A program made the position numbers and the translations under genes. A stretch of 36,768 bases of DNA from Thermoproteaceae archaeon (GTDB lineage Archaea > Thermoproteota > Thermoprotei > Thermoproteales > Thermoproteaceae), in NCBI GenBank assembly GCA_020833025.1, contig JAJHRB010000006.1, forward strand, positions 1 through 36,768, in the 5' to 3' direction. Every line of letters starts with the position of its first letter. Positions within the stretch are counted from its first letter, which is position 1. This document shows positions 6,742 through 35,200 of the stretch, one piece after another. The notes beneath the pieces are model-generated. The model had not been told where the DNA came from, searched no databases, and saw only the letters and a program-made list of their open reading frames with translations.

Positions 6742-8037
6742 TCACGGGCCCAATGCCATCCTGACCCTCCTGGCCACGTCCATGTCCGCGCTCGCCGCAA
6801 CCCTCCTAATGTAGGCCACGTACTCCGAGATCTGGCGCGAGCTGAATGACGCTATCACGTGCGCGTACCAGAGCCACGTGTTGTAGTGAACCGGGTCTCT
6901 GTACTGCTGGGCCAGAATGCCCGCAACATCGCCCACCCCGGCCGTGAGGCAGAATGCCTTCGCGGGAGTCCCGTCGAACATCCGGGACCCGTAGGCCGGC
7001 ACCTCGACCAGTAGCGGCGTGTCGCTGTCGTTGAGCTTGATGTAGAGAAGGTAAAGCTTTGGTACTGCCTCGAGCGCCTCTCGTAGCGCCTCCGCCATAC
7101 CGGCAGCGCCGTCCCCCTGCGGCCTAAATACCGCCGAGTCCCTGAGCCTCTCCGCCGCGGCCTCGGAGAGCCTCTCCGCCGCCGTCAAGCCCCTGTAATT
7201 TAGATGCGCGTCGCAACACCCTAGGAGCATGGGCGCGGTGTAGCTGCCCGCCGGGAGCAGTCTGGCGAGCAGCTCTGAGTCTGTTATTGACTGGGAGAGC
7301 AGTAATGACACGAGCCTGGCGCTCTCGCGATCTAGCGACTGGGCCGCCTTGTAGAAATCTATCAACTCCCTTCTGTACTTGCGCAGCCAGAGCACTGAGT
7401 ACCAGAGGAGCCCTCTAGCGAAAACCCCGTCGCGGTACTTCTCGCTCAGCTTCTCAAATATTGCGTGCTCCTTGAGCAGCCTGAGACTCGAGTCCTTGGA
7501 GACAAAGACCAGCCTGACTCCGCGTCTCTGCGCGCTCGTGAGGAGCCTTGAGAGACTAAGCAGCGCCCTTGCGAGCTCCGGGGCGTGGTAGAGGCTCTGG
7601 AATTCCCGCGAGATTGCCAGGCTGCGCACGAGCTTGGTGACTCTGACGTAAAGCGAGCCGTCCGCCAGCAGCACCTTAATGTCGTGCTTCTCGATTGCCT
7701 TCAGCCCCGCGAGCGACTCCACCGTTATGAGATACGCCCACAGCAGCGGCGGAGAGTCCGCTATTGCTATGTCAACTAGGAACTCCCTCTCGATAAAGTC
7801 AGGCCCCACGGCAGCGGCTCTGGCCAGTACGACGTGGTGCCCGTTTGAGAGCTTGACTGTTACCGCGCCGCCGTCAACGCCGGCAGTCTCGGGACTCTCG
7901 CGCGGCGCTCTCACGCCGAGCGCAGGCAGCCTGCCAGCCAGCATCTCGATTGGGTACTCCTGCTCGAGACTGCTGGCTAAGTACTTGCGCAGCTTCCTAC
8001 TCACCTGCGACATGAACTCGTCGAAGAAATAGTCCAC
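6742..8037 (-). CDS. nurA: NurA 5'-3' nuclease
   Basis: AGVDGG and LLADGSL acidic motifs, C-terminal ..LWYAH; first gene of the herA-mre11-rad50 run. Confidence 0.88.
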   Translation of the reverse strand: MDYFFDEFMSQVSRKLRKYLASSLEQEYPIEMLAGRLPALGVRAPRESPETAGVDGGAVTVKLSNGHHVVLARAAAVGPDFIEREFLVDIAIADSPPLLWAYLITVESLAGLKAIEKHDIKVLLADGSLYVRVTKLVRSLAISREFQSLYHAPELARALLSLSRLLTSAQRRGVRLVFVSKDSSLRLLKEHAIFEKLSEKYRDGVFARGLLWYSVLWLRKYRRELIDFYKAAQSLDRESARLVSLLLSQSITDSELLARLLPAGSYTAPMLLGCCDAHLNYRGLTAAERLSEAAAERLRDSAVFRPQGDGAAGMAEALREALEAVPKLYLLYIKLNDSDTPLLVEVPAYGSRMFDGTPAKAFCLTAGVGDVAGILAQQYRDPVHYNTWLWYAHVIASFSSRQISEYVAYIRRVAASADMDVARRVRMALGP

Positions 8038-14604: not shown

Positions 14605-14717
14605 GGGCCCGTAGTCTAGCCTGGTAGGATGCGCGGTTGTACACTACCGTGTACCGCAGTGGGTCCGCGTGATCCCGGGAGGGTACCCCGGGACTTCAAA
14701 TCCCGGCGGGCCCACCA
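14605..14717 (+). tRNA. tRNA-Pro(TGG) with two introns (33/34, 53/54), CCA encoded
   Basis: Introns 14639-14659 and 14680-14694 each have a perfect 4-bp central helix and 3-nt bulges; mature anticodon arm CGCGG-TTTGGGT-CCGCG, T-loop TTCAAAT. Confidence 0.85.
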
Positions 14718-18454: not shown

Positions 18455-19156
18455 GTGACCCACCAGATTGTGGCGAGGGCTGTTGCGGACGGGCGCAGCA
18501 AGCTCCGCGAGGACGAGGCGCTAGCGCTCCTGAGGGCGTACGGAATACCGGTACCGGATTTCACGATCGCCGAGAGCGAGGAGGGCGCCGTCAAGGCAGC
18601 CGACCAGATAGGCTATCCGGTCGCCGTGAAGGTAATATCGCCGCAGATAGTTCACAAGACCGACGTGGGCGGGGTGGTTCTAAACGTCGCTGACGCGCAG
18701 GGAGTTAGGGAGGCCTTCAGAAGACTGCTGGAAGGCGTGAAAACGAAAGCGCCGTACGCGGACGTGGAGGGAGTGCTCGTGCAGAAGATGGTGCCCAGGG
18801 GCGTGGAGCTAATAATCGGCGCGGTCTACGACGAGATTTTCGGGCACTTAATTGCATTCGGGCTCGGCGGGATTTACACTGAGCTGCTTAGAGACTTCAC
18901 TATGCGCGTCGCCCCAATTGACGAGCACGATGCGTGGGAGATGGTGCGCGAAGTGCGCGCGTATCGCCTCCTCACGGGCTTTCGCGGGATGCCCCCGCGC
19001 GACATAGATGCTATTGTGGACGTGCTGATTAAGTTCTCGCGGCTAGTAACGGAGAACCCGGAGATACGGGAGGCAGACTTGAACCCCGTCATCGCGCTCG
19101 AGGAGGGAAGGGGGGCCTACGTCGTTGATGCGAGGTTTATACTTCGCCCGTCCTGA
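18455..19156 (+). CDS. acdB: ADP-forming acyl/acetyl-CoA synthetase beta subunit (ATP-grasp)
   Basis: GYPVAVK, HKTDVGGV, VQKM, ELIIG, FGLGGI and DLNP motifs. Confidence 0.92.
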   Translation: MTHQIVARAVADGRSKLREDEALALLRAYGIPVPDFTIAESEEGAVKAADQIGYPVAVKVISPQIVHKTDVGGVVLNVADAQGVREAFRRLLEGVKTKAPYADVEGVLVQKMVPRGVELIIGAVYDEIFGHLIAFGLGGIYTELLRDFTMRVAPIDEHDAWEMVREVRAYRLLTGFRGMPPRDIDAIVDVLIKFSRLVTENPEIREADLNPVIALEEGRGAYVVDARFILRPS

Positions 19157-19255: not shown

Positions 19256-19343
19256 TGGTGGGCCCGGGGGGATTTGAACCCCCGACGTCCGCCCGCGCAG
19301 CGGCCTACGGGTCTGGAGCCACGACGCCCCGCGGCAGGCCCGC
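19256..19343 (-). tRNA. 3' half (nt 31-76) of tRNA-Trp(CCA) with a 45/46 intron and a 24-nt GC-rich leader; 5' half absent from the window
   Basis: Minus strand: leader GCGGGCCTGCCGCGGGGC-GTCG-TG | G-CTCCAGA-CCCGT-AG [intron 19287-19304] GTC-GGGGG-TTCAAAT-CCCCC-CGGGCCC-ACCA; TATA-like motif 23-30 nt upstream. Confidence 0.75.
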
Positions 19344-19410
19344 TTCTTTTCATTTGCTGCTGCAATTTTATGCTTTTCGCCGCTCGCGCGAGAGAAGTCT
19401 GCCGGGCAGG

Positions 19411-19463
19411 GAGTCGGCCAGCCAGCCGTCATGCGTCCGCCGCGAGCTGCAGCACCACCAGCC
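19411..19463 (-). repeat. Decayed duplicate of the C/D sRNA at 20851-20907
   Basis: 19427-19463 matches 20871-20907 at 36/37 nt; the mismatch hits the C box (GTGGTG vs GTGATG), the D guide is shortened and the D box reads CCGA. Confidence 0.7.
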
Positions 19464-19570
19464 GCCCCTCTGGCAGAAATCTGAAAAAGAACGCGAGAAA
19501 AAACATAAAAAGAATAGAAAGAGGGTGGGGTGGAGCATAATGCATATGTGCGCGCCAGCACACGAGCTGC

Positions 19571-20587
19571 ATGGACCGCCTGAAGGTGTATATTCTCGGT
19601 GCAACGGGCCTCGTGGGCCAGAGGTACGTCCAGCTGCTGGCGAGACACCCGTGGTTTGAGATCGCTGGCATGGCGGCATCCGAGAGGAGCGCGGGCAAGA
19701 CGCTCCTCCAGGCCGGCTGGATTCTGGAAGAGCCGCCCCCGCCGGAGATAGCCGAGATGGGAATAGAGAAGCTTGACGTGGACAGGGTGCCGCGCGTCGA
19801 CTTTATATTCTCGGCGCTCCCGAGCGAGGTCGCCGCCAGAGTTGAGCCTCAGCTGGCGGCGCGGGGGCATACAGTGCTCTCAAATGCCAGCAACATGAGG
19901 CTCGACCCCGACGTTCCGCTGGTAGTGCCCGAGATAAACCCCGAGGATCTAAAACTGCTTGAGAGACAGAGAGCAGAGAGGGGGTGGAGCGGCGGCGTGG
20001 TCAAGAAGCCGAACTGCACCACCACTATACTGAACCTCTCGCTGAAGCCCATTCTCGACGAGTGGGGCATAGAGAGAATTCACGTCGTCACAATGCAAGC
20101 CCTCAGCGGGGCCGGATACCGCGGAGTGCCCAGTGTCGCGATAATTGACAACGCAATTCCATACATCAAGGGCGAGGAGGAGAAAGTGGTGCTCGAGACG
20201 AGGAGGGTCCTCAAGGCGGATTTCGAGATTTACGTCACGACGACGCGCGTCCCGGTGCTCGACGGCCACCTGGAGGCTGTTTACGTGGACACGAAGAAAG
20301 ACTTTGACGTCAGTGCCGTCGTGAGCGCGCTCTCGAGGTTTAAGGGACTCCCGCAGGAGCTTAAATTGCCGTCGGCGCCGGAGAGACCTATAGAGGTCAG
20401 GAGCGAGATAGACAGGCCCCAGCCGAGACTCGATAGGTGGGCCGGCAGAGGCATGGCGGTGGTCGTTGGCAGAGTGAGAAAGCTGGCGCCGAGAAAGCTC
20501 GCGTTTGTCGTGTTGGGACACAATACAGTAAGGGGAGCGGCTGGTAACTCGATCCTGGCGGCAGAGTTGATGGTGAAGATGAAGTAG
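19571..20587 (+). CDS. asd: Aspartate-semialdehyde dehydrogenase
   Basis: [22 protein letters not shown] (catalytic Cys), [16 protein letters not shown] and [10 protein letters not shown] motifs. Confidence 0.96.
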
Positions 20588-20588
20588 C

Positions 20589-20675
20589 CCTGCAGTCCCT
20601 CCTCTGAGATTTGTATTTCCGCGAGCTGTCTCCCGCGCCCTGTCGGCACGTAGTTTTCAATCCCTCCTGAGATCC
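20589..20675 (-). CRISPR. Possible degenerate mini-array (repeat, 41-nt spacer, repeat)
   Basis: CCTGCAGTCCCTCCTCTGAGATTT (20589-20612) and TTTTCAATCCCTCCTGAGATCC (20654-20675) resemble each other and, as recalled, the Pyrobaculum-type repeat CTTTCAATCCTCTTTTTGAGATTC. No cas genes in the window. Confidence 0.4.
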
Positions 20676-20850
20676 GCCCCCTGGCGCTTCCCACTCGCGC
20701 CTTTAAACTCCAGCCCGAGCTCTGACGCTTGCAAAGATATGCGCGGGGTCGGATCAAGGCATTCTTGATATTAAACAAGGGAAATGACTGGAAGAAAGAC
20801 CGGCAAGACTGCTGCGAGACAGATTCTGGGTCGGCGGGTGGGGCGCGAGA

Positions 20851-20907
20851 CGTCAGCCAGTATGCCCTGTCGTCATGCGTCCGCCGCGAGCTGCAGCATC
20901 ACCAGCC
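20851..20907 (-). ncRNA. C/D-box methylation guide sRNA
   Basis: GGCTG-GTGATGC(C)-TGCAGCTCGCGG-CGGA(D')-CGC-ATGACGA(C')-CAGGGCATACTGG-CTGA(D), with 12-13 nt guides; TTAAAT TATA about 20-25 nt upstream. Confidence 0.75.
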
Positions 20908-21010
20908 TGCAGTGCTCCTGCACCATTTAAGCCATTTACGGGCAGAAGCCTGCCTCTCGCGGCGGGGGCGCCGATCAGCATTAATCAAGCACTACTGCTC
21001 CTGACTCTCC

Positions 21011-34432: not shown

Positions 34433-34730
34433 ACTCGGGGATATGTAGGGCTTGAAAGCTCGACCACGCCCCGGGGGGCTTTCAGTTGTAATGATCGGCT
34501 CGAAAAGCGCATAACTGTGACTGGAGTTGCAGGCGTTACCTGTGCTTGTAGAGTTCTCCCACCAGCCCGCGTATTAACGCCGCAGTGTTTAAGTATGCCC
34601 TGGATGTTGGGAGGCCCGAGCCGGCGGGTTTGGCGGCGTCTCGCGCGACAAGGTCGCCGCGATTCCGTACATGGAGGCAAGGGTGTAGGAGTATGTACAC
34701 ACTACGTGGAGTCTAACTCAGGAGGACTAG

Positions 34731-34809
34731 AGCCCGGGACGGTACACATCCGACCCGGGAGCCGCCCAGACCGCTCACCGTGGCCCCTTGGCCGCTAGAC
34801 GACCGGGCT
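34731..34809 (-). ncRNA. tRNA-Gln-derived 5' fragment or degenerate tRNA with intact promoter
   Basis: Begins AGCCCGGTCGTCTAGCGGCCAAGG (tRNA-Gln-type acceptor and D-arm) and closes with CCGGGCT, but has no recognisable anticodon loop or TTC T-loop; TATA 24-31 nt upstream. Confidence 0.55.
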
Positions 34810-35200
34810 CTGAGTGCCAGGCGCCTCCTCCCTTTTATGCTTTTTCCCGATCTGCTGCCCCGTGTTCTCCCCGAAGAGCCGGCCAGCGCAATGCTGGCGA
34901 TTGCCGGCGGAGGAAATTTATGCTAGGTACCTCTCTGCATTCCAGCCTGCAGAGAGCCGGCTGTCAGCCGGCCCTGTGAGGGCAGGAGCGTTGGCACTCC
35001 GACACACCTCTAGCGCTCTCTGCGTGCCAGTACGGTGCATAACATTGGCATCGCGGTTGCCGGAAGCAGGCGAGCCCCCACTGCCAGGATTGCGGGCTCA
35101 GCGAGAGGAGGCTCTTCGCGTATCTGCCTAGCTGTCGCTCGTCACAGCGGCGTATTACTGCGTGCGGGCGAAAAACAATTTCGCGCGGCAGGCACGATCG

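Follow-up and report, generated by a model that had tools for sequence, protein, structure and literature searches.

The stretch of DNA analysed here, 36,768 nucleotides long and identical to contig C28 of its assembly (hereafter the window), very probably carries the 3' half of a split, trans-spliced tRNA-Trp(CCA) of a Pyrobaculum species. Directly established are both halves of the gene, their complementarity, a geometry that fits, promoter motifs in front of each half, a proper tRNA-Trp when the exons are joined, the finding of no second copy, and the genes of the processing enzymes. From these we infer the transcription, annealing, cleavage and ligation of the halves. Two RNAs would be made from separate BRE/TATA promoters, the 5' half from contig C46 (minus strand, from position 7391) and the 3' half from the window. 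Their leader and trailer would anneal over 14 + 5 GC-rich base pairs and their acceptor strands would pair 7/7, giving an hBHBh' motif that EndA would cleave after G30 and before G31, whereupon RtcB would ligate the exons. A further intron, at 45/46, would be excised in cis by the same enzymes, and the CCA end is encoded in the gene.

Split tRNAs are known from a handful of archaea, namely Nanoarchaeum, Caldivirga and four Desulfurococcales, and they are central to a long debate over an ancestral versus an intron-derived origin of tRNA halves.

The 3' half of tRNA-Trp in the window

The host assembly is a MAG of 1.56 Mb in 126 contigs, with 62.6% G+C and a completeness of 93.9%. The window encodes, at 18455-19156, ACS-beta (the ATP-grasp beta subunit of ADP-forming acetyl-CoA synthetase), which is 74-80% identical to Pyrobaculum sequences and thereby places the genome in a Pyrobaculum species.

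The minus strand of the window reads, from 19343 to 19256, a leader, positions 31-76 of tRNA-Trp(CCA) interrupted by an intron at 45/46, and an encoded CCA, which matches the description given in an earlier note on this DNA (nucleotides 31-76 with CCA, a 45/46 intron and a 24-nt, GC-rich leader). All parts of the feature lie on this strand. A putative BRE/TATA-type promoter box for the 3' half, AAAAGCATAAAAT, occupies 19365-19377 and matches the box found before whole tRNA genes and 5' halves; the 12-mer AAAAGCATAAAA can be read in it at 19377-19366. A spacer of 22 nt (19365-19344) leads from the box to the GC-rich leader, which has the form GCGGGCCTGCCGCGGGGC-GTCG-TG and a length of 24-25 nt (19343-19320, or from 19344 if the paired A is included). 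Two segments of the leader, A-GCGG at 19344-19340 and GCCTGCCGCGGGGC at 19339-19326, pair with the trailer of the C46 half. [quoted passage not shown]

The first exon of the window, tRNA positions 31-45 (19305-19319), begins with G31 at 19319 and comprises the loop CUCCAGA with the anticodon CCA, the stem strand CCCGU, A44 and G45. It is followed by the 18-nt cis intron at 45/46 (19304-19287, with a boundary ambiguous by one G) and by the second exon, positions 46-76 (19256-19286), which holds GUC, the T arm, the acceptor strand CGGGCCC, A73 and the encoded CCA. The T arm is perfect (GGGGG-TTCAAAT-CCCCC), and removal of the 45/46 intron leaves a 5-nt variable loop, AGGTC, as in intron-free paralogues. 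Inserts of closely similar sequence occur at 45/46 of tRNA-Arg, tRNA-Lys and tRNA-Asn of the same genome; the tRNA-Trp genes of relatives also carry inserts at this site, with sequences unrelated to that of the window's intron.

On the 3' half ARAGORN returns a forced 'tRNA-???' with a 4-base anticodon, and the Rfam tRNA model scores 21 bits against a cut-off of 29 bits, both as expected from half a gene. At the gathering cut-off the Rfam search has no match in the window, and a permissive search gives sub-threshold partial matches only. With introns allowed, all that ARAGORN reports around the locus are spurious predictions with long introns (for example 'tRNA-Thr 19260-20933').

A Trp-type 5' exon was not found anywhere in the window at up to 3 mismatches. 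The claim that the window holds no acceptor 5' strand or D-arm stands for the Trp type but is too broad as worded, in that GGGCCCG followed by a D arm occurs at 14605 on the plus strand, within a separate and complete tRNA gene. This gene (14605-14717, plus strand) has its own promoter box and a D arm unlike that of tRNA-Trp, and inserts interrupt it twice, in the anticodon loop region and again after the 5' strand of the T stem. Its acceptor stem is the same as that of tRNA-Trp (GGGCCCG/CGGGCCC, A73), its anticodon is UGU or GUA depending on the register, and both ARAGORN and Rfam missed it.

A circularly permuted tRNA of the type known from Thermofilum pendens and Cyanidioschyzon does not fit, as no 5' exon occurs in the 100 nt between the CCA (19256) and the ACS-beta stop (19156), nor elsewhere in the window.

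A complementary 5' half on contig C46

A scan of the genome for an acceptor strand followed by a D arm finds the 5' half at 7391 to 7361 of contig C46, on the minus strand and with its own promoter box. The sequence from 7391 is GGGCCCGTAGCTCAGCCAGGCAGAGCGGCGG, then A-GCCCCGCGGCAGGC-G-CCGCT. The half comprises exon positions 1-30, followed by a trailer of some 21-24 nt, and an intron-free Pyrobaculum tRNA-Trp has the same 31 exon bases in its 5' part. The earlier note had foretold a 5' half of the form GGGCCCG...CGACGG-N-GCCCCGCGGCAGGCCCGC whose trailer takes up the remaining leader nucleotides. What is found, GGGCCCG...GAGCGGCGG-A-GCCCCGCGGCAGGC-G-CCGCT, agrees with this in its plan and departs from it in two details: position 27 is G, not A, and pairs as G-U, and the last pairs lie beyond a 1-nt bulge. 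The duplex of trailer and leader thus consists of 14 perfect base pairs and, past the bulge, 5 more (CCGCU/AGCGG).

Over its 14 bases GCCCCGCGGCAGGC is perfectly complementary to the window leader, and apart from the strand opposite that leader the genome has this 14-mer in the C46 trailer only. The cognate duplex has an energy of -47.7 kcal/mol. Random 32-mers taken from the genome average -22.6 (sd 5.6), and a single one among 20000 scores as low. When both Trp RNAs are cofolded (-103 kcal/mol), the 7-bp acceptor stem and the leader-trailer helix are formed, the acceptor strands GGGCCCG of C46 and CGGGCCC of the window pairing 7/7. No clear oligo-T terminator was seen after the C46 trailer. 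By itself this trailer can also form a weak BHB in cis (GCCG-CU/G, the slash marking the cut), which could lead to an unproductive cut.

The 5' halves on C46, C89 and C81 differ in the D loop only, and the 5' exons of the Lys and Arg types are nearly the same. This likeness would suit a reading in which the C46 half mainly serves another 3' half, of the Lys or Arg type, or in which joining is promiscuous. We regard that as extremely unlikely, given how sharply the pairing energies discriminate: the C46 half reaches -47.7 kcal/mol with Trp but only -29.8 with Arg-UCU, -33.0 with Lys-UUU and -27.5 with Asn, and the window leader combined with non-cognate 5' halves gives -27 to -33 kcal/mol. Every other 3' half has a best partner of its own, and the D loop of the C46 half, AGCCAGGCA, is that of intact Pyrobaculum tRNA-Trp genes.

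Junction geometry and the joined tRNA

The halves of the split tRNA-Trp meet in an hBHBh' motif at 30/31, the position that had been predicted, and all its pairs are canonical. The outer helix has 3 bp (G22-A23-G24 with C32-U33-C34), the 5' bulge 3 nt (G29 G30/A), the central helix 4 bp (C25-G26-G27-C28 with G-U-C-G, including one G-U pair where the family has GCCG) and the 3' bulge 3 nt (U G/G31), and the inner helix is made of the 14 bp of leader and trailer. Cuts after the second base of each bulge would release exons 1-30 and 31-76. The outer helix has 3 bp only and competes with the D stem, and by free energy, in a model that ignores the enzyme, a neighbouring register that has 1-nt bulges is preferred to that of the BHB. 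The same junction design, ...GCCG-NN/N before position 31, recurs within this genome in three other orphan 3' halves and at the cis 30/31 introns of two tRNA-Arg genes (UCG and GCG), and in relatives at the cis 30/31 introns of tRNA-Trp.

Joining exon 1-30 of C46 to the two exons of the window gives a 77-nt cloverleaf that ARAGORN identifies as tRNA-Trp(CCA), with G1-C72 and A73. The joined tRNA is identical at 75/77 positions to the continuous tRNA-Trp gene of a relative, G005. A scan of the 1.56-Mb assembly (93.9% complete) for the CCA anticodon loop with a T arm found no second tRNA-Trp. An intact gene elsewhere with no complementary half would have spoken for a different origin of the window's piece; the earlier note expected no such gene, and the assembly holds a complementary partner on C46 and no intact copy.

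The genome also encodes the activities that the model calls for, with a gene for the catalytic domain (alpha) of EndA at C61:40360-40611 and a gene for RtcB on C60, and it has three genes of the TrpRS/TyrRS family. The RtcB gene (C60:4614-7331, plus strand) is a single frame of 961 aa with an insert of ~455 aa between the parts that match Pfam, which suggests an intein.

Genuine tRNA remnants do occur in this MAG. Exact 3' duplicates are present for tRNA-Ser(GCU) (C12:492-579 vs C12:11322-11396) and for tRNA-Ser(CGA) (C17:10494-10581 vs C17:79-143), in each case ~10.5 kb away from the intact gene, and they look like att sites of integrated elements. The window's 3' half might likewise be a dead att-site duplicate or a pseudogene, with the working tRNA-Trp in the ~6% of the genome that is unassembled, since completeness is 93.9%. 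We consider this unlikely. Each att-type copy repeats, base for base, the 3' part of an intact gene that its own contig carries, and none has a complementary partner. The Trp piece has no intact copy, a promoter at tRNA spacing and a leader that pairs over 14+5 bp with the trailer of a Trp-type 5' half in the exact register of a 30/31 BHB, a combination that a remnant would not keep.

Putative promoters of the two halves

In this genome a box of the type AAAGCTTAAAA precedes whole tRNA genes and 5' halves and starts 33-35 nt before +1. Both Trp halves conform to this rule: the window box AAAGCATAAAAT starts 33 nt before the first leader base, 19343, and the C46 box AAAGCTTTTATT starts 34 nt upstream of +1. 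The window has two copies of the 12-mer AAAAGCATAAAA where 0 are expected, and the second (34833-34844) stands 22 nt upstream of a tRNA-Gln-type 5' piece, with the same spacing as at the Trp half; the window box is thus not a matter of chance. A looser form of the motif occurs once per ~19 kb of strand. The independent promoter at TATA spacing that had been proposed for the 3' half is upheld by this tRNA-like distance and by the shared 12-mer, both of them features of sequence, and independent transcription of the two halves appears well supported. A scan for sigma-70 promoters and intrinsic terminators, a method ill-suited to archaea, gave no match.

Other probable split tRNAs in the genome

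Besides tRNA-Trp, at least three more pairs in this genome are split at 30/31, with leaders and trailers specific to the cognate partner and a promoter box on both halves. These are Arg-UCU (C89:28993(-) with C13:~7330(+), -41.9 kcal/mol), Lys-UUU (C81:626(+) with C81:473(-) (~500), -37.5 kcal/mol), whose halves are divergent and share a palindromic promoter region, and Asn-GUU (C20:13302(-) with C74:~5782(+), -51.7 kcal/mol). Each pair is the best in its row and its column of the duplex-energy table when 5' halves without any 3' partner there are set aside. For Lys-CUU the halves are adjacent.

Further pieces were noticed. The tRNA-Gln-type 5' piece of the window, AGCCCGGTCGTCTAGCGGCCAAGG... 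(34700-34850, minus strand), lies 22 nt downstream of the 12-mer AAAAGCATAAAA, and Gln-type 3' pieces with a matching acceptor strand are present at C19:711(-) and C89:465(+). Pieces of class II tRNA-Leu are found at C89:44349(+), C89:55050(-), C89:48540(+), C89:53522(-), C102:3206(+) and C34:22760(+); two are 5' pieces that end in the D arm, and four are promoter-bearing 3' pieces (UAG, CAG, GAG and CAA). The leaders of the tRNA-Leu 3' pieces are complementary over 10-11 nt to a 5' trailer, and one 5' piece may serve several 3' pieces.

We lean slightly towards the view that this lineage has fragmented much of its tRNA set and that Trp is one of about ten or more split tRNAs. If so, this would be the largest complement of split tRNAs known and would include the first split class II tRNA, none having been known at the time of a 2015 review (PMC4390854).

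tRNA-Trp in related genomes and the probable origin of the split

We compared tRNA-Trp in 23 other genomes of the family. In most of them the gene is uninterrupted at 30/31 and has various introns elsewhere. The MAG G014 (JAEMPK01) has a 37-nt cis intron at 30/31, and four genomes of a sister genus have a cis intron of 16-17 nt at this site, with the end GCCG-UG/G. In Pyrobaculum sp. WP30, a cultured strain with a complete genome, exons 1-30 and 31-76 of tRNA-Trp are ~930 nt apart on one strand (CP012158.1, about 1555.3-1556.3 kb, minus strand); the genome carried as G015 in our set is that of WP30, as 714/714 overlapping bases match. The WP30 5' piece continues into a trailer and then a T-run, and the 3' piece, which a separate promoter box precedes, starts with a leader that is complementary to this trailer. 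A different break is seen in the Pyrobaculum MAG G013 (its C46, ~1200-1290), where a tRNA-Trp 3' piece with its own promoter box begins at position 23. Other species have a cis 22/23 intron where that junction lies, and a partner 5' piece was not found in the G013 assembly. Full-length tRNA matches at E <= 1e-5 number 17 in the present genome, 18 in WP30, 18 in G014 and 17 in G013, against 36-43 in most Pyrobaculum. Pfam has no match in the small ORFs between the WP30 halves or beside the C46 half, and hence no mobile-element gene is linked to the split there.

The separation seen in WP30 also bears on the quality of the assembly. The host genome is a MAG of short contigs, and exons that are near-identical across tRNA families may mislead assemblers; moreover, exact-pattern scans of the metagenome contigs for the leader/exon and exon/trailer junctions found no second assembly of either. 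An ordinary tRNA-Trp with a cis 30/31 intron, broken by chimeric joins, would on these grounds be conceivable, and we judge it very unlikely. The junctions lie deep within their contigs (the ends are 17-19 kb away on C28, and 7.4 kb and 23 kb away on C46), and each half is preceded by a box of its own at the correct spacing. The sequence past the intron halves is unique and, on the C46 side, coding, with the rpl23 stop 24 nt from the exon. The complete WP30 genome, in turn, has separated halves independently (~930 nt), with a promoter on each.

The neighbourhoods of the two halves of the split gene still resemble those of intact tRNA-Trp genes. In the window the 3' half is 100 nt from the ACS-beta stop codon and convergent with ACS-beta; intact tRNA-Trp is likewise downstream of, and convergent with, ACS-beta in G014, P. 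oguniense and another MAG. Genes for a GNAT protein and an aldo-keto reductase, which in P. oguniense, G001 and G011 flank the intact tRNA-Trp, lie 1.5-3.3 kb from the C46 5' half. The halves are not co-linear: they are in the interior of different contigs, at least ~24.8 kb apart even if the contigs abut, and rpl3, rpl4 and rpl23 stand between them on the opposite strand.

Synteny breaks both at the trailer end and on the leader side. Between the end of the C46 trailer and the stop codon of rpl23 there are 24 nt, and conserved gene order is interrupted at this point: the downstream neighbour of rpl23, present there in 12/13 relatives, lies on C61 in this genome. On the other side, asd adjoins the leader and promoter and has lost both of its conserved neighbours. 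A 42-nt direct repeat, with copies at 19422-19463 and 20866-20907 that are 93% identical and 1444 nt apart, brackets asd, and the right copy resembles a C/D-box sRNA on the minus strand. A single block transposition with three breakpoints, proposed for the junctions of C28, C46 and C61, was dropped as a full account, because the downstream neighbour of asd is also lost and because of the 42-nt repeat, both of which point to more than one rearrangement event.

Most likely, the split goes back to a long-hairpin cis intron at 30/31 in whose loop a genome rearrangement made the break. A 40-nt hairpin intron at 30/31 is present in tRNA-Arg(GCG) of this genome. The 3' half still stands beside a conserved neighbour gene, so that the split looks derived from an intron. 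The description of tRNA-Trp as recently split agrees with the data only in part: the split is derived within the genus, judging from the genes of relatives, but protein identity to the sampled relatives is only about 75-85%.

Significance and comparison with known systems

Split tRNAs have been described in Nanoarchaeum equitans for iMet, His, Lys-CUU, Gln and two Glu, in Caldivirga for Gly, Glu and Ala, in Aeropyrum and Thermosphaera for Asp, and in Staphylothermus for Lys-CUU (PMC4390854). The five Pyrobaculum genomes sequenced at the time of an earlier survey had no trans-spliced tRNAs (PMC3218864). Our full-text literature searches, in which the coverage of journals is partial, turned up no later paper that describes a split tRNA-Trp, or split tRNAs of any kind in Pyrobaculum. 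The split arrangement is thus unreported before for tryptophan tRNA or for the genus Pyrobaculum, and it adds a new isoacceptor as well as a genus for which the absence of split tRNAs had been reported explicitly (PMC3218864).

Within this single genus tRNA-Trp forms a graded series, from a continuous gene through a cis intron and adjacent halves (WP30) to dispersed halves. This series, together with the conserved neighbour gene beside the 3' half, argues for an intron origin of the halves and not for an ancestral one. Should the wider fragmentation of the tRNA set also be real, the series would mean that split tRNA genes arise repeatedly from intron hairpins acting as rearrangement breakpoints. 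In practice, standard tRNA finders miss such genes, and genomes then seem to be without tRNA-Trp. Since WP30 is cultured and has the intermediate form, the model is testable at the bench.

[quoted passage not shown] 2005), which, like tRNA-Trp here, has separately promoted halves that are kilobases apart and join at 30/31 through a canonical hBHBh' motif. The perfect GC-rich pairing in trans extends over 13 nt in those systems (PMC3218864) and 14 nt in tRNA-Trp. The Trp case differs from them in the isoacceptor, in its host (Thermoproteales, Pyrobaculum), in the additional cis intron at 45/46, in the central G-U pair and in the cis intron that congeneric relatives carry at this very site. The adjacent halves of WP30 resemble instead the tRNA-Asp of Aeropyrum, with a second promoter before the 3' half and a T-run after the 5' half, although the Aeropyrum join is at 37/38; in contrast to that adjacent type, the halves in the genome of the window are on different contigs.

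As far as the account of Fujishima et al. (2009) given in PMC4390854 goes, the split and tri-split tRNAs of Caldivirga maquilingensis share with the present case the order Thermoproteales, the occurrence of several split tRNAs in one genome, and leaders that correspond to cis introns at the same position in relatives; the isoacceptors there are Gly, Glu and Ala, compared with Trp here. The cis non-canonical introns of Thermoproteales tRNAs, including the multi-intron genes of Pyrobaculum, have a BHB design in common with both the 45/46 and the 30/31 introns described here, and the same enzymes presumably act on them all. Unlike in those cis introns, the two sides of the 30/31 intron of this tRNA-Trp are no longer on one transcript.
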